Both the position numbers and the translations under genes were made by a program. The notes below the pieces were generated by a model. That model was given only the letters and a program-made list of their open reading frames with translations. It was not told the DNA's origin and ran no database searches. From NCBI GenBank assembly GCA_029820045.1, contig JALGVE010000010.1, forward strand, positions 1 to 58,849: 58,849 nucleotides of DNA, read 5' to 3'. Positions 1 through 58,849 of the stretch are shown here, piece by piece. The number at the start of each line of letters is the position of its first letter. Position 1 is the stretch's first letter. Source of the DNA: Candidatus Zipacnadia bacterium (GTDB taxonomy: Bacteria; Armatimonadota; Zipacnadia; Zipacnadales; UBA5352).

Positions 1-1
1 C

Positions 2-142
2 ACGGCGGTGATGCACTTCGTGGACTGCCTTATGGAGGGCAGCGAACCGGTATCGCCGGGCACGGACGGCCTGCGCATCATGAGACTCCTCGACGCGATG
101 TACAAGTCCGCCGACACCGGCAAGGCGGTGACGATCAAGTAG
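2..142 (+). CDS. 3' end of a Gfo/Idh/MocA-family oxidoreductase (gene starts left of the window)
   Basis: Frame 2 reads TAVMHFVDCLMEGSEPVSPGTDGLRIMRLLDAMYKSADTGKAVTIK*, a typical Gfo/Idh/MocA C-terminus (F..C....P....DG...M..LDA.Y.SA..G..V). Confidence 0.85.
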   Translation, partial: TAVMHFVDCLMEGSEPVSPGTDGLRIMRLLDAMYKSADTGKAVTIK

Positions 143-175
143 TGTTGAAGCATCGGCCCGTGCAGGCAGCGCGGG

Positions 176-589
176 CTATGTGTCTTCTTCAGGTGACAAA
201 GGCAGGGGCGGCAGGACCTGCTCAACCCAGTCGAGGAAGCGCTTCGCCTGTGTGATGATCCTGTCGGCGGAATCGCGGCCGATCGCGCGCCCCTCATACT
301 CGGCGGCATTCTTCTCGCGGATGATCTGGGTGAACTGCCTGGCGTGCCTGGCCGCCTGCTCCTCCCAACGTGTACCTCTGAGTGCTCGCTGGAGGAACCT
401 GCCGGCCTCGCTATGTGATTCGCCGGCGGCTCGTTCGCCAAGCTGGTAGAGACACAGTGCATCGTTCGCAGCGATCACCGCGTGAACAGCGTTGCTGGCC
501 GCCTGACTGGTGTGCTCCGGGTCATGGGCGGCCTCAGCTACCTCCAGGAAGCGTCGGGCCTGTATCAGGAATCCCTGCCAGTTCGCCAC
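176..589 (-). CDS. HEPN-domain protein (putative toxin of an MNT/HEPN pair)
   Basis: 137 aa helical protein with ARRFLEVAE, NAVHAVIAANDAL, GESH and KNAAEY segments typical of HEPN. Overlaps the upstream MNT gene by 25 nt. Confidence 0.75.
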   Translation of the reverse strand: MANWQGFLIQARRFLEVAEAAHDPEHTSQAASNAVHAVIAANDALCLYQLGERAAGESHSEAGRFLQRALRGTRWEEQAARHARQFTQIIREKNAAEYEGRAIGRDSADRIITQAKRFLDWVEQVLPPLPLSPEEDT

Positions 590-1194
590 CGGCTTCTCAG
601 CCTCTCAAGTGAGTCTCCCACCAACTTGATCCCGTCGCGCAGTATGTTCCGCCAGAAGTCGCTGTCCGCCTCCTCCCACTCACGCAGGTCAGCCAGGTCG
701 GCGATGTGCCACGACAGAGCTAGAGAGTGCTGCTCGGCAAGCGCGAGACATGTCTGATCAATCCGGGCCTCGATATGCTGGGTTTTGCGTTCGACGACGA
801 TCAGAATATCGGTGTCGCTCCCCGCTTCAGCCTCCCCGCGTGCCTCGCTGCCGTACAGGATAATGCTCAGCGCCTCCGGTACCTCCGACGAAAGAGCAGT
901 GACAACTCCCTCTGAACGCTTTTGCTCCGCAGCGAAGAGACCTCGCAGCCTCTCGATCAATTCCCCTTCGGGCTGTCTGAGTTCGTACGCGCTCGCGCGC
1001 CCGTGGTCTCGCTTGGTGAGCACCCCCGAGGCCACGAGTTCCTGCAATGCGTTCCATCCTGGCCCATATGATATGCGCGCCCGGCGGATGGTCTCTCGGC
1101 CACTAAGTGGGCTCTTGGCATGACAAAGCACGCGAAGCACGCCGACCTTCGCTGGCGACGACAGTATATCCTGGAGCGGGTACAGTAGCCACAT
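565..1194 (-). CDS. wHTH + minimal nucleotidyltransferase (MNT) antitoxin
   Basis: N-terminal wHTH (LSGRETIRRARISYGPGWNALQELVASGVL) and Pol-beta motif YGSEARGEAEAGSDTDILIV (GS-x10-DxD). Confidence 0.88.
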   Translation of the reverse strand: MWLLYPLQDILSSPAKVGVLRVLCHAKSPLSGRETIRRARISYGPGWNALQELVASGVLTKRDHGRASAYELRQPEGELIERLRGLFAAEQKRSEGVVTALSSEVPEALSIILYGSEARGEAEAGSDTDILIVVERKTQHIEARIDQTCLALAEQHSLALSWHIADLADLREWEEADSDFWRNILRDGIKLVGDSLERLRSRWRTGRDS

Positions 1195-1219
1195 TCGATA
1201 TCACGCAAGCAGCCGAGCT

Positions 1220-1257
1220 TGGTCTGTTTTCAGACCATATGGTCTGTATTCAGACCA
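1220..1257. promoter_or_regulatory. Twin palindromic operators TGGTCTG-N4-CAGACCA
   Basis: TGGTCTGTTTTCAGACCA (1220-1237) and TGGTCTGTATTCAGACCA (1240-1257), 20-bp period, directly downstream of the MNT promoter -10 box. Confidence 0.8.
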
Positions 1258-1286
1258 ATCATACCCGTAGCAAACGCCCGTGTCAA
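1258..1286 (-). promoter_or_regulatory. Sigma70-type promoter of the MNT-HEPN operon
   Basis: Minus strand TTGACA (1286-1281), 17 bp, TATGAT (1263-1258). Confidence 0.85.
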
Positions 1287-1416
1287 GCCCCGCCGAAGCA
1301 GGCCGGAGGTCGTACCTTTACGTCTCCTCCGGGCTTGCGTCCTCATGTATGTGTGCTTCTCGCTTCTCCTCCGGGCCGCGACAGCTGTGCGGGTCGCTGG
1401 CCGCGGCGACACGAGC

Positions 1417-1533
1417 CAACTTGCCGGGGGTTATCGGCTGTGGGGCGCCCGCTACGGCGTCATCTTCGCCCTTGACGAGCACCGCCGGCGCATATCAATC
1501 CGCGAGGTGGGGCACAGCGGCAGCATCTACTGA
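1417..1533 (+). pseudogene. Remnant of a RelE/ParE-family toxin gene (3' part only)
   Basis: LAGGYRLWGARYGVIFALDEHRRRISIREVGHSGSIY* matches the intact RelE at 1963-2220 at 22/37 residues. No recognisable 5' half or antitoxin. Confidence 0.75.
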
Positions 1534-1553
1534 GAGGGGAATGCGAAGGCGTC

Positions 1554-1623
1554 GCGCATCATGAGGCTCCTCGACGCGATGTACAAGTCCGCCGACACCG
1601 GCAAGGCGGTGACGATCAAGTAG
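1554..1623 (+). repeat. Second copy of the last 70 bp of the upstream oxidoreductase gene
   Basis: 69/70 identical to 73-142, including the stop codon. Confidence 0.97.
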
Positions 1624-1639
1624 CGCGGCTGCCTTCGCC

Positions 1640-1668
1640 TTGTCGCTCCCCATGGGCTGTGCTACAAT
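1640..1668 (+). promoter_or_regulatory. Sigma70-type promoter of the antitoxin-RelE pair
   Basis: TTGTCG, 17 bp, TACAAT with extended -10 TG. RBS GAGGAGG precedes ATG 1719. Confidence 0.65.
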
Positions 1669-1718
1669 GTGGGAGTAGGCCAGTGCTGTGTAAGGAGCGC
1701 CCCAGAGGAGGCAACGCA

Positions 1719-1976
1719 ATGGCTGAAGCCAAGGCACGGGATCGGCTGGCCCGGGCGTGGGAGCAGGCCCAGCGCCTGCCGGATCACCGCAAGGCCGCGC
1801 TGATAGACTACATCGAGTTCCTCGCCTCTCGCAGCGACGAGGATGAGATATGGCAGCCGGACCCCGAAGAGGAAGAGGCCATTCGCGCCTGGCTTGCCGG
1901 TGAGGGCGACGACGGTGTTCCCTGGGAAGAAGTGAAGCGCCGCTCGCGGGAACTGGGCGACCGTGTACTCGATTAG
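1719..1976 (+). CDS. Type II antitoxin (DUF2281-like)
   Basis: 85 aa acidic protein with LPDHRKAALIDYIEFL and C-terminal GVPWEEVK. Overlaps the toxin start by 14 nt. Confidence 0.75.
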   Translation: MAEAKARDRLARAWEQAQRLPDHRKAALIDYIEFLASRSDEDEIWQPDPEEEEAIRAWLAGEGDDGVPWEEVKRRSRELGDRVLD

Positions 1977-2220
1977 GTTCACAGGCAAGTCGGAGAGGCA
2001 GTTCCTACGCCTCGACGCGCGGACACGTGCACGGCTTGAGGAGCGGATCGATCAACTGGCGCAGTGGCCGAACACGACGCTCGATGTACGACCCCTCAGG
2101 GGCAACCTGGCGGGGGTCTACCGTCTCCGTGTCGGCCAGTACCGTGTGATTCTCGTGGTAGACGAAGAGCGCAAGCGCATCTCAGTGCGGGAGATCGGCC
2201 CCCGCGGGAGTATCTACTGA
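1963..2220 (+). CDS. relE: RelE/ParE-family toxin
   Basis: 85 aa, GTG start. YSIRFT...LRGNLAGVYRLRVGQYRVI...IGPRGSIY RelE signature. Confidence 0.9.
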   Translation: MYSIRFTGKSERQFLRLDARTRARLEERIDQLAQWPNTTLDVRPLRGNLAGVYRLRVGQYRVILVVDEERKRISVREIGPRGSIY

Positions 2221-2253
2221 GGCGGGAATGCCAAGGCCTCAGGGGCCTCGCGT

Positions 2254-2528
2254 ATCGAGCGCGAGTTCGTCTACTCGACGCTATGCGGCACCGAGGCGGG
2301 CGCGAGCCTGGAGCGCGTCTTCGGCTTCGACGGCATAGACGACACCGCGATTGACACCTGCGAACTGTACACGCAAGAGCACGGGGTGCCGGTGAACTGC
2401 ACTTCGTGGACTGCCTTATGGAGGGCAGCGAACCGGTATCGCCGGGCACGGACGGCCTGCGCATCATGAGACTCCTCGACGCGATGTACAAGTCCGCCGA
2501 GACAGGGAAGGCAGTGACCATCAAATAG
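2254..2528 (+). pseudogene. Internally deleted third copy of the oxidoreductase 3' region
   Basis: 2398-2528 matches 12-142 at 125/131. 2254-2397 encodes IEREFVYSTLCGTEAGASLERVFGFDGIDDTAIDTCELYTQEHGVPVN, resembling an earlier Gfo/Idh/MocA segment, joined out of frame. Confidence 0.8.
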
Positions 2529-2562
2529 TATTGTGGCAGGGGCCGCCCTCGGCCCCCGCATG

Positions 2563-4971
2563 TTAGTCCAGGTGTATCCCCGGAAGCAGCGTCCCGAGCA
2601 GGCCACGCACGTGGCGATTGGGGAACTGGGAGGCGGGTCTGAGTTCCCGGCCGACGCGGAACCGGACACAGGCCGCGATCGCCCCAGGCGAACCATCGTA
2701 GCTCCCACCGGGGGTGAACACGAGCCAACCGCCCTTCTCGACGCCGGGGCCCTTCACGAGCAGCAGGTCTGCCACGCGCTCGCCGGTGACAGTGCTCGCC
2801 AACACGGTCCTGCCGTCTCTACCGACCGTCACGATCATGCTGCCGCTCGGCCCGAATGCGAGCGACGTGACCGCGTCATCGTGTGCCGCGATGTCGTGCA
2901 GGAGGGACCCATCGCGGGCGTCGTGCAGCCCAACATGGCCGTCGGAGCAGCCAACAGCCAGTATCCTGCCGTCCGGGCTGAAGCGAAGCACTTGTGGGCT
3001 GTGAGGCGAGCCGCCACTGCCGAGGAGTTGACCGGACGCGGACTCGTAGACGATGATCCCGCCATAGGCCCCAATGGCAAGCCGGTCGCCGGTCGGGCTG
3101 AAAGCCATGAGGTCGCTCGCAATGACGCCCCGCTCCGGGAAGCGCGCCAGCTCCTCGCCGGTCGCTACATTGAGCACGACGATCTTCCCGCAGTGCGCCG
3201 CCAGCGTGCTTCCGTCCCCGCTCACGGCGATGGTCCTTATCGGCTCGAGGTCGGCCTCGTCGAGGTCAAACGATGCCGTTTCGTGCCCGTCCGCAAGGCG
3301 GATGACTCGCACGTGCCTGTTTGTCGGGAAGGCCACCAATCGTCCGGCTGTGTCCAGGACCGCCTCCGTGAGCTCACACGGATTGGAGATGGGCAGCGTC
3401 GCGATCAGCGATCCGTCAAAGAGGCTGTAGACCTGGGAGATGTGATTGCCCTCCCGCCGCGCGTCCAGCGTGAGGAGGAGCATGTTCCTGGCGTCGATCT
3501 GGAACGCCGAGGCGCTTCCGATCTCACAGCCGGTCCCCTCAAGCGACGGCCCTACTCCCGACCACGTGACTCTGTCTACCGATGATCGCCGCTCCGGGAC
3601 TAGTCGGCCAAGGTGCGGGTCGATCCACCACCGCGAACTCGCGGCGCGGGCGCGGATCGCGGTCAGGCGCCCATCGGGCTGAAACGCGACGGCGAAGGGC
3701 ACCATCCCCCCAGGTCTTGCGGTCGGCGCCATGGGGCGCGGTGCCGGCTCGGAGGCCGGCCGCCACACACACGTCAAGGCCTGCGCCACCCCCGCGGCGA
3801 TCAACTGTGGCTCCCGTGTGTAGCGTAGGGCGCGGATGGGGCGGTGATCGTGCGGGGGTTCGTCGGGCCACTGCCACGAGGCGATTTCCGCGTGTGTGCC
3901 CAAGTTCCAGACCCGCACCGTGCCGTCGCAGTGCGCCACCGCCACTCGCTGCTCCCAGTGCTGGAGGGCTACCAGCAGCGGGTCTTCCGGCCGCCCGCCG
4001 GGCCCGTGCCCGGGAACCAGCTCTACCCCGTCGGCCGAGCGTTCGCGCCAGACCCAGACTCCGGTCTCGGGACCCGAGGCTGCCCTGAGATGACCCGAGA
4101 TGGCGACGCCCGTTATAGTCGGGCGCGCTGGGAGCGCTGAGCTGAGCTGCGGGGGCATCCAGTGGTCTGGTCTGGGCCGCAAGTCATAGGTGCCTCGATT
4201 GATGTGATGGAAGCGCACGGCGCCGTCGGCGTACCCCAGGAGCAGGTACGGAGCGTGCGGCTCGAAGGCGACGGCCGTTGCCGGGGCCTTGGTGGCACCC
4301 CCGTGGATGATATCTACCTCCTCCCCTGTGCTCGTATCCCATATCCGAACGTCCTCGTGGTGCCTGCAGGAACCGGATGCGAGCCGCTTGCCGTCCGACG
4401 AGAGGGCCAGAGCCCGCAGGCACTTGTCAGCGGGGGAGAATGCGAGCAGCTCCTCACCCGTGGCCGCCCGGAGCAGTCGGATCTTGCCGTGGGAGAAGCT
4501 GCCGTAGGCGAGCAGGAGCGCCTCGTCGGCGAGCGCCGGCAGTCCGGCCACCTTTGGCTGCAGCTCGTAGGCGGCCCGCAGCTCGAGGCTGTCCGCGTCC
4601 CAGACCTGGATGCGTCGTCCGAAATCGGCAAGGACCAAGCTGCGCCCGTCCTGGCTGAAATCGATCCACTGGGGTTCGGAGACAATGCGTAGGATCAACT
4701 CGGGATCAGTCGCCCAGTCAGGGCGTGAGCTTCGCTGGCTGTGTATTGGCCCTGCCTGCCCGCCAGAGATCTCCTGGTCGGCGAACGCAGCCGCGAGAGA
4801 GAGGCGATCAGGCTCAGCGGCTGCATCACCAGACCGCGCGCAGCCACCGATGCAACATGTAACCGCGAGCACGCAGCAACCCACCGCGGCCGACAGCAGC
4901 TTCATGAGTACCCCCTGTCGTCGATCAACGGCCCGCGACTGTCCCGGCGACGCAAGCGTGGTTAGGGTCAT
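2563..4971 (-). CDS. WD40-repeat (beta-propeller) putative lipoprotein
   Basis: Many WD40 repeats (FSQDG, LSSDGKRLASGS, VRIWDT, FSPDGRILAVGCSDG, AHDDAVTSLAF). Lipobox-like IGG-C. Alternative start at 4905 (MKLLSAAVG). Confidence 0.85.
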   Translation of the reverse strand: MTLTTLASPGQSRAVDRRQGVLMKLLSAAVGCCVLAVTCCIGGCARSGDAAAEPDRLSLAAAFADQEISGGQAGPIHSQRSSRPDWATDPELILRIVSEPQWIDFSQDGRSLVLADFGRRIQVWDADSLELRAAYELQPKVAGLPALADEALLLAYGSFSHGKIRLLRAATGEELLAFSPADKCLRALALSSDGKRLASGSCRHHEDVRIWDTSTGEEVDIIHGGATKAPATAVAFEPHAPYLLLGYADGAVRFHHINRGTYDLRPRPDHWMPPQLSSALPARPTITGVAISGHLRAASGPETGVWVWRERSADGVELVPGHGPGGRPEDPLLVALQHWEQRVAVAHCDGTVRVWNLGTHAEIASWQWPDEPPHDHRPIRALRYTREPQLIAAGVAQALTCVWRPASEPAPRPMAPTARPGGMVPFAVAFQPDGRLTAIRARAASSRWWIDPHLGRLVPERRSSVDRVTWSGVGPSLEGTGCEIGSASAFQIDARNMLLLTLDARREGNHISQVYSLFDGSLIATLPISNPCELTEAVLDTAGRLVAFPTNRHVRVIRLADGHETASFDLDEADLEPIRTIAVSGDGSTLAAHCGKIVVLNVATGEELARFPERGVIASDLMAFSPTGDRLAIGAYGGIIVYESASGQLLGSGGSPHSPQVLRFSPDGRILAVGCSDGHVGLHDARDGSLLHDIAAHDDAVTSLAFGPSGSMIVTVGRDGRTVLASTVTGERVADLLLVKGPGVEKGGWLVFTPGGSYDGSPGAIAACVRFRVGRELRPASQFPNRHVRGLLGTLLPGIHLD

Positions 4972-5100
4972 AGAAACCTCCCGGCCGCCCCGTCAGCAGT
5001 CGGCCACTCCGTCTCGATGAGCGCGACGACCTCCCGGGGACCGTCCCGAGATCCTCCTTGGCGTCGACCTCGCCCGCTTGTGCTGTTCGCCTGAGGCGCA

Positions 5101-7728
5101 TCAGGCCTCAGCGAGTATCCCGTCCATGTGGTCTGCCAGCTTCTCCAGGGCCTCGTCTACGTCGCGCTCGCCGAGCAGGACCGGGTGGAGGTGATGCTGC
5201 ATCAGTTGGGATATGCGCGAGTAGTGGGGGATGTCGTGACGGTGCCGCGCCGTGCGCAGCATCTCGCGTAGCAGGGGATAGTGCGGGTTGAAGGCCAAGA
5301 CGTCGGGGTCGGCGTACAGCGACTCAATCGTGGGCAGCGGGCCGCCGCGCAGGGCCCGCTCCTTCTGTATCTCGTGGCTGCTCATGAACTTGATGAACTC
5401 GCCCGCCGCCACCGGCGCGCGCGCGTTCATCGGAATCGCGTAGTGCCACCCGCCCAGGAACGTGTACCCGGCATCTCCCTCCGGGCCCCGGGGCGGCGGC
5501 GCAATCCCAACCTTACCGCGCACCGCGGCGTCGGGCCGGTTCGTCTCCTGGAGCACGCTGGGCAACATGCTGAGGAAGACGGTGTGGCCCTGGACGAAGT
5601 TCTCCTGCGGCTCAAGGCCGTGGGCCGCCGTGGTCACGCTCAGCGGCGTAATCCCGTGGACGTGAATGAGGTCGCGCATGAACTGCAGGGCCGCGCGGGC
5701 CGCGTCGCTGTTTAGCGCGCTGCGCCCGTCCTCGAGCACCTCGCCACCGTTGCTCCACAGGTTGGTGAGGAACGAGGTGCTCAGGCCCTCGTAGAGATAG
5801 CCCGGGAACTGATAGCCGATGAGGCTCTCATCCTTCTCGCCCGCCAGGATGGTCTTCGCCTGCTCGATAAGCTCATCCCAGGTCGCAGGCGGGTCCTGGA
5901 AGCCGTAGGTCTCAAGGAGGTCCTCGCGGTAGAGGAAGACGCCACACAGAGCAATCGCCGGGACGCCGTAGAGATGCTCGCCCCGGATGGCCGGCTGAAC
6001 GAAATCGCTGATATGCTGCTCAAGCTCCTCGGGCGGCAGCAGGTCCTCCACCGGGCGCAGATCCATGGTGTCAATGACCTCAGGCATCCAGTACAGGCAC
6101 AGCGGCGCCACGGAGAGGTTGGTGCTCTCAGCGCGCATGGCGGTGGTGACGACGTTGAAGACCTCGTCCGGGTTGTACGGAATGCTCAGCGCGACTGAGG
6201 AGACGTTGGGATACATCTGAGTGAACCTGTCCAGCAACTCGGCGTTGAGCTGCTGATCGTACTCGGTGAAGCTTCTGACGGAGAGGGTAACGGTGGTGGC
6301 GCGCGCGGCGCCGGCCATCACGCCCTCGGCGCCCTCGAAGCGGCTCTGCACCTCGATGCCTCGGTCGGTGATGCTGTAGCGCCAGATGCCCTTGTCATGG
6401 TCGCAGCCCCGCATCTTGAGCACCGAGATGGCGCGCTGTATCTCGCTCTCCAGCTCCAGGTACTTCATCAGGATGATGCCATCAACGATGATGGAGATGT
6501 GCTCGCTGGTGACGTAGGTCTGACCGAAGAGCTCCGGCACCTCGGTGGTCAGCAGGGCAGTGACCCCGCGGCGGTTGAGCATCTCCACGAGGGAGTAGAC
6601 CGACTCGCGCAGCGAGTTGCTGTCCGTAATGGACAGTTCGAGGTCGGTAAGGCTATCGAAGACCACGCGGCTGGCTCCCATCTGCTCGATCGCCTGGTCG
6701 AGTTCGATCATCAGTTGCTCGAAGCGTGTGGTGAGCGGCGAGCAGTGGATGACCCTGAGCTTGCCGGTCTGCTCGAGTTGGGGGAGGTCCAGCCCGAAGC
6801 CGGCCGCCAGACAGGCCAACTTCGCGGGCGACTCCTCGAAGCTCACGAGGAGGCCCGGCTCCCCTTGGCGGGCGCCCTCGCAGACGAACTGCAGTCCCAG
6901 CGTGGTCTTGCCTACTCCCGCGCTGCCGGCGACCAGGGTGGCGCTATTCTCCCCTAGCCCGCCGCAGAGCATGCCGTCGAGGCCGCTCACACCTGTGGAG
7001 ATGCTCCCGACCGGGAGGGCCGGCTCAGGTTCGCGCGACACAGGGTGGTATCGCGGGTAGACGACAGCGCCCTCGGAGGTCAACTCGAAGCCGTGGCGCC
7101 CTTGCCGGTGCGCCTGGCCTCGCGCCTTGAGCACCTCCACGTAGCGCCTGCGCCTCAACTGCCCAGCCAGCGGGTAGTCCAACCTGATGACGGTGTCGCA
7201 CAGGTACTCCTCAAAGGGCACGAACTCCGGCTGCGTGTCCTCGAGTTCTTTCGTGATGATCGCGGTGAGTTCCGCACGCTTGATGCCGTTTATCATCCCG
7301 TAGAAGAGGGAGCGAAGCTCCTTGGGGTCGTCGCTTATCTGCATCAGGTGGGAGGCGCTGTCAATCATCAAGCGGCTGACGCCCATCTCCTCCACGAGCC
7401 GGTCAACCAGCCCGCCGACTTCACCGAGCTGGTCCAGGAAGACCTCGGGCGAGGTGCAGATGAGCCTGACCAGCCCGTCCCGCTCCAGGGCCTCCAGGTC
7501 CCAGCCGAACCTGGTGGCATCAGCCACCATCTGCTCCGGGAACTGCTCGAAGGTAATGACCAACCCGGCCTCGTTCTCGTTCAGGGCCCCGTGGTGTATG
7601 AACTGCAGTCCCACGGTGGTCTTTCCGGTGCCGGGAATGCCCTCGAGCAGCGTGCAGGTGCCGCTGCGCAGCCCGCCTGCGAGAATCTCGTCCAGGCCGG
7701 CGATGCCAGTGGCCACCAGCTTACTCAT
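5101..7728 (-). CDS. KaiC-like double RecA-domain ATPase fused to a C-terminal carbohydrate solute-binding-protein domain
   Basis: Two Walker A motifs (GIPGTGKT, GSAGVGKT), TG(I/V)xGLD starts, FEQ/FEE, KARG/KMRG. From about 6290 an SBP domain (LYGVP, YREDLL, PPATWDEL, LGGWHYAI). Start 7728 has an AGGAG RBS and overlaps the upstream stop. Confidence 0.92.
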   Translation of the reverse strand: MSKLVATGIAGLDEILAGGLRSGTCTLLEGIPGTGKTTVGLQFIHHGALNENEAGLVITFEQFPEQMVADATRFGWDLEALERDGLVRLICTSPEVFLDQLGEVGGLVDRLVEEMGVSRLMIDSASHLMQISDDPKELRSLFYGMINGIKRAELTAIITKELEDTQPEFVPFEEYLCDTVIRLDYPLAGQLRRRRYVEVLKARGQAHRQGRHGFELTSEGAVVYPRYHPVSREPEPALPVGSISTGVSGLDGMLCGGLGENSATLVAGSAGVGKTTLGLQFVCEGARQGEPGLLVSFEESPAKLACLAAGFGLDLPQLEQTGKLRVIHCSPLTTRFEQLMIELDQAIEQMGASRVVFDSLTDLELSITDSNSLRESVYSLVEMLNRRGVTALLTTEVPELFGQTYVTSEHISIIVDGIILMKYLELESEIQRAISVLKMRGCDHDKGIWRYSITDRGIEVQSRFEGAEGVMAGAARATTVTLSVRSFTEYDQQLNAELLDRFTQMYPNVSSVALSIPYNPDEVFNVVTTAMRAESTNLSVAPLCLYWMPEVIDTMDLRPVEDLLPPEELEQHISDFVQPAIRGEHLYGVPAIALCGVFLYREDLLETYGFQDPPATWDELIEQAKTILAGEKDESLIGYQFPGYLYEGLSTSFLTNLWSNGGEVLEDGRSALNSDAARAALQFMRDLIHVHGITPLSVTTAAHGLEPQENFVQGHTVFLSMLPSVLQETNRPDAAVRGKVGIAPPPRGPEGDAGYTFLGGWHYAIPMNARAPVAAGEFIKFMSSHEIQKERALRGGPLPTIESLYADPDVLAFNPHYPLLREMLRTARHRHDIPHYSRISQLMQHHLHPVLLGERDVDEALEKLADHMDGILAEA

Positions 7729-17480: not shown

Positions 17481-17782
17481 CGTCGGCCTCCTATCTCTGC
17501 CGACAGCGTTTGAGCACCGAACGCGCCCGGAAGCACGACGAGCGGCGGAGGTCGCCCCCGGACAGGGGGAGGCTACGCGACCTCGGTGAAGTCGGACGGG
17601 CCACGGCATCCGCGCCTCGAGCCCTCCTGGGAGGTTGTCTCCCCGCGTTTTGCCTGGTAGAGTTACCCAGGCAGCCCGGGCCGTAAACGGAGCGCGAGCA
17701 ACAGAATCGTAACGATGCAACGGCCCGCCACGGGCGAAGGGCGCCGCCTGTTGCGAGATCACACATGGAGGTACTGAAAGCC

Positions 17783-19063
17783 ATGAGCAGCAAGCCGGTA
17801 ACTGCGGTCATCATCGGATGCGGACATCGCGGCGTGGGCTACGGGCGCTACTCCCTGACGCACCCGGAGGACCTCAAGGTCCTCGCCGTGGCTGATCCCG
17901 ACCCCATCAGGCGCGAGCGCGCGGCTGAGCAGTTTGACATCCCGCCGGAGCGTCGCTACGAAACGGGACAGGAGTTGGCGGAGGAGCCGCGCCTCGCCGA
18001 CGCGGCCATCAATGGCACCATGGACCGCGACCATGTCCCCACCACGCTCCCGCTTCTCGACGCAGGCTACGACGTGCTCCTGGAAAAGCCCATCTGCTCC
18101 ACCAGGGAAGAGCTGTTGGGGCTGCTCCGGGCGGTGCAGAGGACCGGCCGGAAGCTCATGATCGGCCATGTCCTGCGCCACGCCCCGTTCTACGTGGCAA
18201 TCAAACAGCGCCTGATGGACGGCGAGGTCGGCGAGATCATGACAATGCACACGGCGGAGAACGTTAGCTACCACCACGTCGCGGCCGCCTTCATCAGGGG
18301 CAGGTGGAACCGCAGGGATACCTCCAACCCGATGCTGCTGGCCAAGTGCTGCCATGACCTCGACCTGATAGCTTGGTTCAAGAGCGGCATTCGCCCCGTG
18401 CGCGTCGCCAGCATGGGCAGCCGCATGTTCTTCCGCGAGGAGATGGCGCCTCCCGGCTCGGGAACGCGCTGCCTGGTGGACTGCGAGATTGAGGACACCT
18501 GCCCGTACTCGGCTCGCAAGAACTATCTGGAGCAGAAGCGCTGGGGCGCATACTGCTGGGAGGCCATCGAGGATATCGCCGAGCCGACCGAGGAGGACAA
18601 GCGCGAGTCGCTACGCACCGACAACCCTCATGGCAGGTGCGTCTGGCGCTGCGACAATGACGTGGTGGACCACCAGTCGGTCATCACCGAGTTCGAGGAC
18701 GGGGCGCTTGCCACGCATGACCTGATAACCGGCACGGCCCGGCCGGGGCGGTCAATTCACATCGCCGGCACCGCCGGCGAGATCGAGGGGTTCATGGAGC
18801 ACGGGAAGTTCGTCGTGCGGCATCCGGACGCGCGCGTCGGGCACGAGTACTCCGAGGAGGAGACGGATCTGACCGTGTCTGCTGATATGCACGGCGGCGG
18901 GGACATGCGGCTGGTGGAGGACTTCATTCACGTGGTCCGCGGTGAGGCGCCTTCCATCTCGACCACGGACATTGCGGACTCCGTCTACGGACACCTCATC
19001 GCCTTCGCCGCCGACGATGCGATGCTGCACAGGCGCGTGGTCGAGATCGAGGAACTCGGGTAG
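17783..19063 (+). CDS. Gfo/Idh/MocA-family oxidoreductase (YteT-like)
   Basis: IIGCGHRG, LLEKPI, GHVLRHAPFY, LLAKCCHDLD, GRCVWRCDNDVVDHQ, HGGGD. Confidence 0.92.
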   Translation: MSSKPVTAVIIGCGHRGVGYGRYSLTHPEDLKVLAVADPDPIRRERAAEQFDIPPERRYETGQELAEEPRLADAAINGTMDRDHVPTTLPLLDAGYDVLLEKPICSTREELLGLLRAVQRTGRKLMIGHVLRHAPFYVAIKQRLMDGEVGEIMTMHTAENVSYHHVAAAFIRGRWNRRDTSNPMLLAKCCHDLDLIAWFKSGIRPVRVASMGSRMFFREEMAPPGSGTRCLVDCEIEDTCPYSARKNYLEQKRWGAYCWEAIEDIAEPTEEDKRESLRTDNPHGRCVWRCDNDVVDHQSVITEFEDGALATHDLITGTARPGRSIHIAGTAGEIEGFMEHGKFVVRHPDARVGHEYSEEETDLTVSADMHGGGDMRLVEDFIHVVRGEAPSISTTDIADSVYGHLIAFAADDAMLHRRVVEIEELG

Positions 19064-57356: not shown

Positions 57357-57568
57357 GACAGACGAGGCGTCTGTCCTACTACCCGACAGACGAGGCGTCT
57401 GCCCTACTACGCGACAGACGAGGCGTCTGTCCTACTACGCGACAGACGAGGCCTCTGTCCTACTACGCGACAGACGAGGCGTCTGTCCTACTACGCGACA
57501 GACGAGGCCTCTGTCCTACTACGCGACAGACGAGGCCTCTGTCCTACTACGCGACAGACGAGGCCTCT
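57357..57568. repeat. Tandem array of a 28-bp REP-like unit (7 full copies + 16 bp)
   Basis: Unit GACAGACGAGGC(G/C)TCTGTCCTACTACGC starts at 57357, 57385, 57413, 57441, 57469, 57497, 57525 and 57553 (partial). No spacers. Confidence 0.97.
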
Positions 57569-57631: not shown

Positions 57632-57652
57632 GCCTGTACTGTGAAGCTGATC

Positions 57653-58849
57653 TCAGAAGCTTCCCAGCGCCTCCTTGTCGCCCTCATCCATCGGGATTAC
57701 TTCCTCGGCCGCCGGCGCGTTCTCTCCGCCAACTAGCTTTAGTGACGTGCCTGCGGCCTTGTGCGCGGTCGGAGCATGGGCTGGTGTTGTAGCTCGGCCC
57801 CCTCCTCCCGCGGCGCTGCTCAGCCTGAAGGCCTCCACCATCGCGCGCAGCTCCTGAGCCTGAGCGGATAGCTCCTCCGAGGCGCTGGCCGACTCCTCGG
57901 AGTTGGCCGCGTTCTGCTGAGTGACCTGGTCCATCTGGCCCACGGCGGTGTTGATCTGCTCGATGCCCTGGGCCTGCTCGTTGCTGGCCGCGGCGATCTC
58001 AGCCACCAGGCTGTTGACCTTGCTGGAGCCGTCGGCGATCTCCACCAACGCCTCGGCGACCTCCTGGCTGATAGCGACGCCGCCTTCGGCGTTCTTCACC
58101 GATTCCGCGATCATGTCGGCAGTGTTCTTCGCAGCCTCGGCGCTGCGCTGCGCGAGGTTGCGGACCTCCTCGGCCACCACGGCAAAGCCCTTGCCAGCAT
58201 CGCCAGCGCGGGCCGCCTCCACCGCGGCGTTGAGCGCCAGCAGATTGGTCTGGAAGGCGATCTCGTCAATGGTCTTGACGATCTTGCTGGTCTCCTCCGA
58301 GGATTTCTGGATGTCGTCTATGGCCGCGGACATGCGTCCCATTGCCTCGCTGCCCTTGTCGGCACTCGACTGGGCCCCGGCGGCGAGGTTTGTGGCTTCG
58401 TCGGCATTGCCAGCGTTCTGCTTGGTCATCGAGGACATCTGCTCGAGGCTGGCTCCTCGAGAGCACTGGCTTGCTCGGCGGCGCCTTCAGCCAGGCTCTG
58501 GCTGCCAGTGCCGATCTGTCCGCTGGCCTCGGCAATCTGCACCACCGCCGCCGCGACCTGGCCCAGAGCCTCATCTATCCCGGCGACCGCGGCGTTGATG
58601 TTGTTCTTCAGCTCTGCGAAATCGCCTTTGTAGGCGCCCTCCATGCGCTTGGTGACGTCCCGCTGCGCTGCGGCCTCCAGCACTATCGCGGCCTCGTTAA
58701 TCGGCCCGACGATCGCGTCGAGCGTATTGTTGACGCCCTGGAGAATCTGAGCGTAGTCGCCTTGGTACTGCGAGATGTCGGCGCGGCTGTCGAGCTTGCC
58801 TGCGACCGCGTCATCGGCGAGCCGGGCCGACTCGGCGATCAATCCGTTC
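57653..58849 (-). pseudogene. Methyl-accepting chemotaxis protein (5' part outside window), frameshifted near 58452
   Basis: HAMP-like and EQASALEE in one frame. [13 protein letters not shown] and [40 protein letters not shown] in another. May be a real lesion or a sequencing/assembly error. Confidence 0.8.

Follow-up and report, generated by a model that had tools for sequence, protein, structure and literature searches.

In a Candidatus Zipacnadia bacterium, the 3' flank of an oxidoreductase gene is probably a hot spot at which self-contained toxin-antitoxin (TA) operons are gained, stacked and eroded by host recombination, with no need for an element-encoded or integron-type recombinase. 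The window analyzed here, a stretch of 58,849 nucleotides, is the entire contig C90 of a metagenome-assembled genome (MAG; G000) that comprises 173 contigs and is 59.6% complete. In this window, the 3' end of a Gfo/Idh/MocA oxidoreductase gene is present three times, at positions 1-142, 1554-1623 and 2234-2528, with TA genes between the copies; no further copies of this tail were found in the 2.6-Mb genome, the BLAST E-values of the copies being 4e-29 and 5e-58.

Three copies of a gene end

The first copy (1-142, plus strand) consists of the last 46 codons and the stop codon of the oxidoreductase gene, as identified from the end of contig C41 and from orthologues, and scores 22.7 bits at 2-142 with the C-terminal domain of the family (PF02894), against a cut-off of 22.9 bits. 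It is followed, at 143-177 of the same strand, by native-type sequence with a terminator-like hairpin (155-177), that is, by a gene end of the 'empty-site' type; a GC-rich hairpin 20-40 nt past the stop is also discernible by eye in the empty orthologous loci. The second copy (1554-1623, plus strand) is the last 70 nt of the gene, identical to copy 1 (73-142) in 69 of 70 positions. It is preceded at 1534-1553 (plus strand; compare 2221-2240) by the junction j', GGAATGCGA, and the first gene-fragment bases, AGGCGTC, so that copy 2 opens with the short junction of copy 3 (GGAATGCxA, then AGGCxTC of the gene) and then jumps to the last 70 nt. The rest of copy 2 appears to have been removed by an internal deletion across a GCGCATC microhomology.

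The third copy (2234-2528, plus strand), entered through the junction j, GGAATGCCA (2225-2233, plus strand; 8/9 identical to j'), represents approximately the last 347 nt of the gene minus some 52 nt that are absent at 2397|2398, which results in a frame shift. The earlier, sequence-only reading of this DNA had placed the start of this copy at 2398; the copy is real and the identity of 125/131 between 12-142 and 2398-2528 holds, as does that reported for copy 2, but the start lies at 2234, the first 164 nt (2234-2397) being 97.6% identical to the end of C41. Positions 2398-2500 are identical to copy 1, and there are 6 differing sites in the final 28 nt. Nine of the 10 coding differences between copy 3 and the gene, among them all six at the 3' edge, fall in third codon positions. 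Because the edge differences are all of this kind, we take copy 3 to be a displaced, once-functional allele whose divergence occurred in another lineage, where it was a working gene, and the sequence-only reading, which took the distal tail for a displaced gene end, is borne out on this point. The centres of the tail copies are identical over 114 and 103 nt and both edges are diverged, a pattern that fits homologous exchange or conversion. Past copy 3 lies native-type downstream sequence with a hairpin (2529-2562, plus strand), common to the WD40 gene that converges on it from the minus strand (2563-4971).

Between copies 1 and 2, a HEPN toxin gene (176-589, minus strand; PF05168, 25.3 bits) overlaps at 565-589 with a gene for an MNT antitoxin (565-1194, minus strand; winged helix and nucleotidyltransferase, PF18765 and PF01909), which has homologues at 68-69% identity in genomes G006, G010 and G016. 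The two genes form one operon in which HEPN stands beside a minimal nucleotidyltransferase, as in HEPN/MNT modules. A sequence search places ahead of this operon (1219-1286, minus strand) a promoter-like site (TTGACA, 17 nt, TATGAT) and a 40-nt palindrome (1219-1258) that is likely to be the operator. Next to it lies the remnant of a second RelE gene (1423-1533, plus strand), namely, its last 36 codons and stop, delineated by alignment with 10 RelE homologues and matching metagenome contig L057 in tblastn with E = 8e-10; the 5' half and the antitoxin of this unit are gone. Cassette 2 (1624-2224, plus strand) carries a promoter-like site (1640-1668), an antitoxin gene (1719-1976) and a RelE/ParE toxin gene (1963-2220) that matches PF05016 with 29.2 bits against a cut-off of 23 bits (28 bits in the genome search). 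The antitoxin gene, whose family match is weak (DUF2281, 24.3 bits, under the 26.5-bit cut-off), overlaps the toxin gene by 14 nt behind a promoter-like site of its own, the layout of a type II module, and we predict that cassette 2 is a type II RelE/ParE TA module. Apart from this weak antitoxin match, the Pfam searches support the assignments made previously from the sequence. The two inserts are 1.4 and 0.6 kb in size, and each of the two intact operons is equipped with its own consensus-like promoter.

Empty and filled sites

All 19 orthologous loci fetched from relatives encode one conserved oxidoreductase C-terminus and have a single tail, and 18 of the 19 are empty: within 1.5 kb, they contain none of the TA genes seen in the window. 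Two other assemblies have the same cassette and no tail copy, its place being exactly the interval from stop codon to terminator: in genome G005 (L006) and the metagenome contig L057, the intact gene and its stop are followed by the promoter, antitoxin and RelE of this cassette, and homology to the window stops at 2224. In L057, a hairpin follows the cassette and there is no tail copy within 1 kb. We also compared the window with four public runs (Logan contigs only, k=31), one of which, X3, departs from the window at 2224 into sequence resembling that behind the RelE gene of L057; both ends of cassette 2 were set by comparison with G005, L057 and X3. An exact 31-nt pattern search matched one metagenome contig (L057) plus the G005 contig, and a search of public collections for close relatives of the RelE gene found none in genome contigs or metagenome contigs. 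Empty and variably filled sites, which the sequence-only reading had proposed to look for in related genomes, are thus both present.

The cassette family has moved between genes: in relatives, it is found at the stop codons of three other genes (four in all), each time behind a co-directional host gene and once stacked with a tail copy between the cassettes. In that parallel stack (G001, contig C113), the order is gene X, tail, cassette a, tail copy, cassette b. At contig C215 of G004, 58 nt are identical on each side of a homologous cassette, and the G001 and G004 copies at gene X have a joint in common. A cassette at the aconitase locus of G009 carries about 34 nt of the gene X tail and so has taken a piece of the tail of a former host gene to a new locus.

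Separate acquisition of the stacked cassettes

Could the stack have arisen in situ, by a tandem duplication of tail, cassette and a few bases, after which the copies diverged, conversion kept the tails alike and the HEPN/MNT operon overwrote part of unit 1? Copies 2 and 3 do share the same junction (8/9) and the same start in the gene, an observation that we count for entry by homology yet that would also fit local duplication of one unit; the two G001 cassettes are homologous and in tandem (68% identity over 574 nt); and, on contig C156 of the MAG, a 144-nt MNT fragment (99% identity) upstream of a HEPN-MNT pair looks like a partly deleted tandem duplicate. Nevertheless, we consider this explanation unlikely. 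The RelE remnant aligns with its intact neighbour in 21 of 36 residues and with RelEs of other genomes in 23, 21 and 20 of 36; because it is no closer to the neighbour than to these, the cassettes appear to be separate acquisitions. The stacked cassettes of G001 are not sisters either but belong to different clades (support 99/97), each of which also includes cassettes from other host genes. Furthermore, copy 3 ends in a junction of the empty-site type with its own hairpin, its six third-position edge differences are unlike the decay of a local pseudocopy, and L057 and X3 lack copy 3 altogether. The view that a single simple tandem duplication does not account for the locus, previously argued from the low identity of the RelE pair, accordingly stands, as does the low identity itself, the count being 21/36 rather than the 22/37 first given.

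Assembly state of the locus

The assembler or a mixture of strains may have shaped part of this picture. C90 starts inside copy 1, the body of the oxidoreductase gene is on contig C41 (reverse strand) with about 41 nt unassembled between the two, and the split of the gene coincides exactly with the borders of the 52-nt gap in copy 3. The joint 2397|2398, which matches these contig ends, is found in 0 of the 4 public runs, and in X1 both of its flanks continue into intact gene sequence; the gene-like tract in X1 also extends further left (2241, 2242, 2253). In X2 and X3, the same pieces have other neighbours. Record 7 of X2 has gene-like letters ahead of 1554, which could reflect either a genuine intact tail or a k=31 path that crosses between copies 1 and 2, and record 16 of X5 extends just 12 nt to the left of 1553|1554, short of bridging that junction. 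Positions 1-292 and 1398-1541 (the latter containing the RelE remnant) are uncovered in every run.

The extreme form of this concern, that strains with different genes behind the oxidoreductase were threaded through the shared tail to produce the whole array, seems improbable to us. The junctions of the RelE remnant with copy 2 and of RelE with copy 3 are novel sequence that occurs in no mix of simple alleles, and record 3 of X1, which may be the source sample, crosses the latter by more than 31 nt on each side. Neither collapsing nor threading can create the edge differences between the copies, and the same architecture recurs at a second locus of this MAG as well as in other MAGs.

The recombinase question

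The sequence-only reading saw no integrase or transposase here, and indeed none of the families PF00589, PF00239, PF00665 and PF01609 has a match on C90, C41, C35 or C156, such that no recombinase gene was found on the MAG contigs concerned here. In the entire MAG, these four families match only C127, C140, C74 and C161; the tyrosine recombinase genes are just two (PF00589, on C127 and C140), and no serine recombinase or rve integrase was found in the 59.6% of the genome that the MAG represents.

That same reading went on to propose an integron-like array of gene tails recombined site-specifically and mobilised in trans, and here our results disagree with it, so that overall its interpretation is supported in part. 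Integration into the gene tail as an attachment site by a recombinase supplied in trans, be it integron-like, Xer-like or that of an integrase-less island derivative, is in our estimate a very doubtful account of the locus: direct repeats of a gene 3' end around an insert are the classic footprint of integrase-borne islands, the borders of cassette 2 are exact in three assemblies, the cassettes sit at stop codons of four different co-directional genes and a trans-acting recombinase could be unassembled in a MAG that is about 60% complete, but the repeats range from 58 to ~347 nt, come from different host genes and start at unrelated sequences with no shared core that we could see by eye, the same cassette also occurs with zero duplication, the patchwork of identity among the copies is in line with homologous exchange, and the cassette ends have no inverted repeats or attC-like arms, the 1219-1258 palindrome being the only one near the cassettes in a search of positions 1-6000. 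Judged as an integron, the array has no IntI-type tyrosine recombinase beside it; its cassettes are closed by gene-tail copies and, according to the inverted-repeat search, not by attC sites; and these cassettes bring promoters instead of being mostly promoterless and expressed from Pc. It thus resembles an integron, on our best reading, in its result and not in its mechanism.

A proposed mechanism

The reading that we prefer, and consider fairly probable, is homology-anchored entry followed by unequal crossover, with the outcome stabilised by addiction. The antitoxin and RelE cassette would first have sat exactly between the stop codon and the terminator, a state that persists in the other assemblies. 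DNA comprising the gene end and the cassette would then have passed from one such strain into a recipient that had a different allele; one end of it would be anchored through homology to the gene and the other joined by illegitimate recombination inside the resident gene, that is, by homology-facilitated illegitimate recombination or, equally, by a single crossover of a circularised fragment. The incoming end would thereby restore the gene, and what had been the resident end, copy 3, would come to lie behind the cassette. Misaligned tails of different alleles might subsequently recombine and add units on the gene side, such as HEPN/MNT with the RelE remnant, while gene conversion would keep the copy centres alike and microhomology deletions would trim the copies. 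Recombination between tails can be expected to remove cassettes; because the toxin outlasts the antitoxin, such loss would be selected against, and otherwise unstable structures would persist around addiction modules. Against homology-anchored entry, no recombination intermediate, circular or empty-site joint was found in the four runs, of which only contigs were searched, with 1-292 uncovered; the same scope applies to the circular junctions of 142 with 1623 or 2528 that the sequence-only reading had proposed to look for, none of which was seen.

Conceivably, although we regard this as rather less likely than not to be the case, the transferable unit is 'host-gene tail + TA operon', and the locus belongs to a lineage of recombinase-free selfish elements in which the tail serves as a portable homology arm and RecA-dependent attachment site, tail recombination releases a unit able to re-enter any genome with the gene or to land illegitimately elsewhere, and the toxin punishes loss. 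The joint j conserved in two units, the joint of G001 and G004 at gene X and the gene X fragment in G009 hint at such a life cycle. If true, type II TA cassettes would have an independent life cycle, and there would be a general route by which cassette arrays are built behind housekeeping genes.

Relation to known systems

The insertion of restriction-modification (RM) systems accompanied by a long duplication of the target was reportedly described by Nobusato and colleagues in 2000. This phenomenon and the sequential displacement in Rhs and type VI secretion (T6SS) loci are the closest precedents for the present locus. According to Furuta, Abe and Kobayashi (2010, PMC2853133), RM insertions of this type have no mobility gene, and the direct repeats at their flanks, which exceed 30 bp and reach ~420 bp, occur once in genomes with an empty site; in two cases from Haemophilus, there is overlap with a gene's 3' end. 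These authors envisage a cycle in which a module invades, is amplified through the repeats and is released, and they suggest that DNA breakage caused by the cargo drives insertion. An addiction-type module, the lack of a mobility gene and long, variable direct repeats are features in common. The repeats in the window (70 to ~295 nt) align with the one tail of all 19 orthologues, as the 96-nt repeats at contig C35 of the MAG do with those of 17/17, and the inserts (1.4 and 0.6 kb) are well within the 20-kb limit of those authors, with no recombinase or transposase match in them or beside them on C90 and C41. Their definition also calls for both R and M genes in the insert, whereas the cargo here is TA genes (type II operons with RelE or PIN toxins and HEPN/MNT), such that the locus works like this class without being a member of it as defined by its authors. 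Moreover, the units here are stacked and the displaced copy carries the mark of a foreign functional allele. RelE family toxins cleave RNA and are not known to cut DNA, so DNA breakage by the cargo would not be the driver of insertion here, which argues that cutting by the cargo is not needed. The product of Campbell-type insertion-duplication, in which a non-replicating circle (a suicide vector) with a 3' fragment of a gene yields the complete gene, the insert, a 5'-truncated gene end and the native downstream sequence, is identical to this locus, the circular form being conjectural in our case.

In rhs, CDI and T6SS arrays, modules enter beside a conserved gene by one-sided homology, for which homology-facilitated illegitimate recombination was proposed (Kirchberger et al. 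2017, PMC5361080), and older 3' ends with their protective genes are shifted downstream, the newest unit adjoining the gene (Jackson et al. 2009, PMC2935791; PMC5361080). Copies 2 and 3 are likewise displaced 3' fragments downstream of newer modules. In those arrays, as described there, it is the conserved gene's own toxic C-terminus, along with an immunity gene, that varies; here, by contrast, the host gene encodes an ordinary oxidoreductase and its tail provides nothing beyond a homology arm, and the cargo consists of autonomous TA operons with their own promoters. Integron arrays also stack small cassettes, often TA, behind a fixed point, all oriented alike and with repeats between them, but here there is no IntI on the contig, host gene tails replace attC hairpins as separators, the promoters are the cassettes' own and repeat length depends on the locus. 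In genomic islands and CIME-like integrase-less, att-flanked islets, the gene is similarly rebuilt by the incoming 3' end and the displaced end marks the far border; by contrast, the present inserts measure 0.6-1.4 kb, contain no integrase gene or remnant and include a cassette that is also found without duplication. A literature search, mostly outside subscription journals, returned no paper on gene-tail arrays or on long target duplication at type II TA cassettes.

Pandey and Gerdes are said to have discussed TA mobility in 2005, and how chromosomal TA cassettes move without a mobility gene of their own is an old open point. The locus and its relatives offer a testable model, with gene ends as homology arms, one-sided recombination, misaligned stacking and addiction that preserves the repeats, which extends the footprints of RM long target duplication and polymorphic-toxin displacement to classical TA operons. 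For annotators, a short gene end that looks like a 'pseudogene' and lies behind a TA or defence cassette becomes an informative scar.

Extent of the footprint

A scan for other TA modules with duplicated gene tails, suggested in the sequence-only reading, uncovered loci in relatives and a second one in the MAG. In the latter (contig C35), a MazE/PIN pair lies between 96-nt copies (88.5% identity) of the tail of an F5/8-type-C gene, and 17/17 family orthologues are empty and single-tailed. Third-position differences at this locus amount to 6 of 11, which is not significant and counts against homology-anchored entry. On contig C142 of G010, a DUF559 gene is enclosed by 312-nt tail copies.

Among 12 TA loci detected in the MAG, 3 are flanked by direct repeats of at least 66 nt; with 9 of 12 devoid of a flanking repeat, the footprint is not general. 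Low-copy direct repeats 500-10000 nt apart occur at 8 loci of the MAG and enclose TA genes at 3 of these. The repeats on C14, C15, C40, C85 and C144 turned out to be dispersed intergenic or tandem repeats and not gene tails. Weaker repeats were also seen at L046 (70%, 94 nt), L054 (82%, 50 nt), L042, L111 and L117, and as a 28-mer on C22.

Duplicated gene ends around toxin-antitoxin cassettes

When the beginning of the window was analyzed, the 3' end of a single host gene was found there three times (copies 1, 2 and 3, at 1-142, 1554-1623 and 2234-2528), with toxin-antitoxin (TA) genes between the occurrences. The repeated piece codes for the C terminus of an oxidoreductase of the Gfo/Idh/MocA type (PF02894; score 22.7 bits, cut-off 22.9 bits). 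Both direct repeats that a sequence-only reading had reported are present, with 73-142 matched at 1554-1623 (69/70 identical nucleotides) and 12-142 at 2398-2528 (125/131; E-values 4e-29 and 5e-58, respectively), and the 2.6-Mb genome contains no further copies. The window starts inside copy 1 and is the whole of contig C90, one of the 173 contigs of a metagenome-assembled genome (MAG) that is 59.6% complete; the body of the oxidoreductase gene lies at the end of contig C41, and comparison with orthologues indicates that approximately 41 nt are absent between the two contigs. Because the last 164 nt of C41 match window positions 2234-2397 (97.6% identical), copy 3 begins at 2234 and represents approximately the last 347 nt of the gene, so that the match originally placed at 2398-2528 holds but its start moves to the left. 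Approximately 52 nt are missing from copy 3 at 2397|2398, which shifts the frame; the borders of this gap coincide exactly with the end of C41 and the start of C90, and both the gap and the exact copy number rest on short-read assembly. Copies 2 and 3 open with the same short junction (GGAATGCGA versus GGAATGCCA), followed by the AGGCxTC of the gene. Given this common opening, after which copy 2 jumps across a GCGCATC microhomology to the last 70 nt of the gene, copy 2 is a deleted version of a copy-3-type fragment. A native-type hairpin comes after copy 1 and after copy 3, as at empty loci.

Behind copy 1, domain searches identified two genes on the minus strand, one for HEPN (176-589) and one for an MNT nucleotidyltransferase (565-1194), accompanied by a promoter close to consensus and a palindrome of 40 nt (1219-1286), and alignment with RelE homologues revealed a RelE remnant that comprises the last 36 codons and ends at 1533. 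The HEPN/MNT pair thus stands in place of the 5' half of this older RelE cassette. Between copies 2 and 3 lies an intact operon, with a promoter-like site at 1640-1668, that encodes a small, weakly DUF2281-like antitoxin (1719-1976) and a ParE/RelE toxin (1963-2220). The remnant matches the neighboring RelE at 21/36 positions, compared with 23/36 and 21/36 for the RelE proteins of two relatives, G001 and G010; that it is no nearer to its neighbor than to these agrees with the earlier argument against one simple tandem duplication.

Empty and filled sites at the oxidoreductase gene

Orthologues of the oxidoreductase were detected in 36 of the 41 genomes searched, that of the window included. 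The search for empty or variably filled sites that had been proposed as a check covered 19 loci of relatives, each of which has one tail within 1.5 kb; the TA genes of the window were seen within this distance at one of them, in G005. There, the stop codon of the intact oxidoreductase gene (87% protein identity) is directly followed by the same promoter and antitoxin as after copy 2, in a stretch 88% identical in DNA to the window, after which the contig ends. In an independent metagenome contig (L057), the gene (84% protein identity) and its stop codon precede this same promoter and the genes for the antitoxin (79%) and RelE (67%). The similarity to the window breaks off at 2224, a hairpin comes next, and no tail copy was found in the remaining 1 kb after the cassette. 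Finally, a contig from the public sequencing run X3 is 98% identical to the window over 1939-2224 and exits it at 2224 into L057-like post-RelE sequence. Because these three cases fix the borders, the antitoxin-RelE cassette is a discrete unit (1624-2224) that lies precisely between stop codon and terminator and also exists without tail duplication.

Independent sequence was taken from Logan contigs for four runs, each belonging to a different study; as these contigs were built with k=31, a path that crosses a repeat of more than 31 nt can be chimeric. Pieces of both cassettes were present at 98-100% identity in all four runs. In X1, possibly the source sample, one record (record 3) leads from copy 2 through the antitoxin and RelE into the gene fragment and spans 2224|2225, reaching over 31 nt beyond it in both directions. 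The 2397|2398 joint was seen in none of the four runs; in X1, intact gene sequence continues on both sides, the 52-nt stretch is present and the gene-like tract reaches further left (2241, 2242, 2253).

Copy 3 matches the gene without a single mismatch over 114 nt (2284-2397) and 103 nt (2398-2500) and differs from it at both edges, a near-identical center with diverged edges that is probably the trace of homologous exchange or gene conversion. The coding differences fall at third codon positions in 9 of 10 cases, including 6/6 at the 3' end, for which we calculate a binomial chance of approximately 0.0014, assuming that sites are hit evenly. This bias is a mark of divergence under purifying selection; the end of copy 3 once terminated a working allele of another lineage.

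The same footprint at other loci

Homologous antitoxin-RelE cassettes occur in 22 of the 67 genomes of the order, the window's genome counted. Within the taxonomic family, these cassettes directly follow the stop codon of a gene that runs in the same direction; four different genes are occupied in this way, namely, those for the oxidoreductase, glycogen synthase and aconitase, and a very large gene, here called gene X, with a weak, below-threshold PKD-domain match. The gene X site is filled in five genomes, and the cassette that it holds in G008 is decayed; none was detected beside the gene X tail at the loci of G005, G007 and G009. In G001 (contig C113), the order is gene X, tail, cassette a, tail copy, cassette b, that is, a second stack, in which the right side of the tail copy is identical (31/31 nt) and the left side diverged. 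In G004 (contig C215), 58 identical nt flank the cassette on both sides and a third, partial copy is present. Inside the gene X end at this locus (L030, 986-1019), there is also a 40-nt tandem duplication, with the frame shifted and the ORF running towards the antitoxin gene, which reflects either a true disruption or a slip of the assembler in the repeat.

A maximum-likelihood tree of antitoxin plus RelE from 11 cassettes contained three supported groups (99/97, 100/99 and 88/90). The stacked cassettes a and b of G001 belong to different groups, both of which also contain cassettes from different host genes, and the glycogen synthase site is occupied by a member of one group in G013 and of the other in G015. 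As judged from these comparisons, the cassettes move. At the aconitase locus of G009 (L032, contig C141, approximately 1160-1210), some 34 nt alignable with the gene X 3' end of other genomes are present after the stop codon of aconitase and before the promoter of the cassette; a piece of a former host gene's tail thus travelled with the cassette.

A scan for other TA modules followed by duplicated tails had been proposed as a check, and contig C35 of the window's own genome has one: an F5/8-type-C gene has a MazE/PIN pair behind it and then a second copy of its own tail (96 nt, 88.5%), and all 17 orthologues of this gene in the family are single-tailed and lack the pair. In the same region (C35:8301-10225; L059:1802-3726), a strong promoter-like site (TTGACA, 17 nt, TACAAT) follows PIN, and the tail copy continues in frame from some 20 codons that resemble the beginning of a winged-helix antitoxin gene; the two may represent a further, eroded cassette. 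On C156 (3990-4905; L060), a HEPN-MNT pair next to purL has upstream of it a 144-nt copy (99%) of the 3' end of an MNT gene, apparently what partial deletion has left of a tandemly duplicated TA cassette. In G010 (L105, contig C142, 2244-3623), a DUF559 gene (Vsr-like endonuclease) is bracketed by two copies (312 nt, 88%) of the final part of a large upstream gene and directly adjoins an MNT/HEPN pair homologous to that of the window, and at L113, near MNT homologues in relatives, an MNT-HEPN pair is enclosed by 135-nt repeats. Searches of the MAG with three toxin families found 12 TA loci, 3 of which are flanked by direct repeats of at least 66 nt. Low-copy direct repeats spaced 500-10000 nt apart occur at 8 loci, and at 3 of these they enclose TA genes.

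Possible mechanism and related systems

The sequence-only reading inferred an integron-like array that uses host gene tails as recombination sites and is possibly mobilized in trans. The MAG does encode two tyrosine recombinases (C127 and C140) and has DDE transposase matches, on C74 and C161 only; no serine recombinase or rve integrase was found in this 59.6%-complete assembly, C90, C41, C35 and C156 have no recombinase or transposase matches, and no inverted repeats were found at the cassette ends, which speaks against such a system, although a recombinase could still have acted in trans.

While the anatomy and the comparative results are observations, the pathway, the order of events and the part played by addiction are inferred. 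In the simplest account, homology to the host gene anchors the recombination. Incoming DNA consisting of a gene end and a cassette would pair with the resident gene, and its far end would be joined illegitimately inside that gene, possibly at the AGGCC common to the junction and the gene, so that the resident gene end would be displaced behind the cassette; a circularized fragment entering by a single crossover would yield the same product. With tails flanking each cassette, homologous recombination of misaligned alleles could then add units on the gene side, while conversion would homogenize the tail centers and short-homology deletions would trim the copies. Because deletion between tails would remove the antitoxin gene, addiction should select against such loss. 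In the MAGs and short-read contigs that form the evidence base throughout, no recombination intermediate was observed.

Insertion of restriction-modification systems with a long duplication of the target was reportedly treated by Nobusato and colleagues in 2000. Furuta, Abe and Kobayashi (PMC2853133) describe such insertions of restriction-modification systems as having repeats of more than 30 bp and up to approximately 420 bp, variable in length and without mobility genes, with two cases overlapping a gene 3' end, and propose a cycle in which the systems invade, are amplified by way of the repeats and are released. Kirchberger et al. (PMC5361080) explain T6SS immunity arrays by sequential displacement via homology-facilitated illegitimate recombination and connect them to rhs orphan arrays; displacement arrays at rhs-type loci were reportedly treated by Jackson et al. 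2009 (PMC2935791). In the literature searched, we found no published account of a long-target-duplication or displacement footprint for type II TA operons.

Other repeats in the genome

Near the far end of the window, there is a 100-nt tandem repeat (57357-57568; 96%), and approximately 900 nt (57649-58551) show 82% identity to the opposite strand of C82:408-1285. The genome also contains a dispersed family of repeats of approximately 100-230 nt, with 27-34 matches per copy in this 60%-complete MAG, mostly intergenic and often at contig ends (for example, C10:9155-9331, C10:11727-11903 and C128:47852-50196). At the end of contig C14 (16919-18205), a small DUF559-like gene (17485-17847), with the motif recognized by eye and without a Pfam call, lies among local repeat copies.
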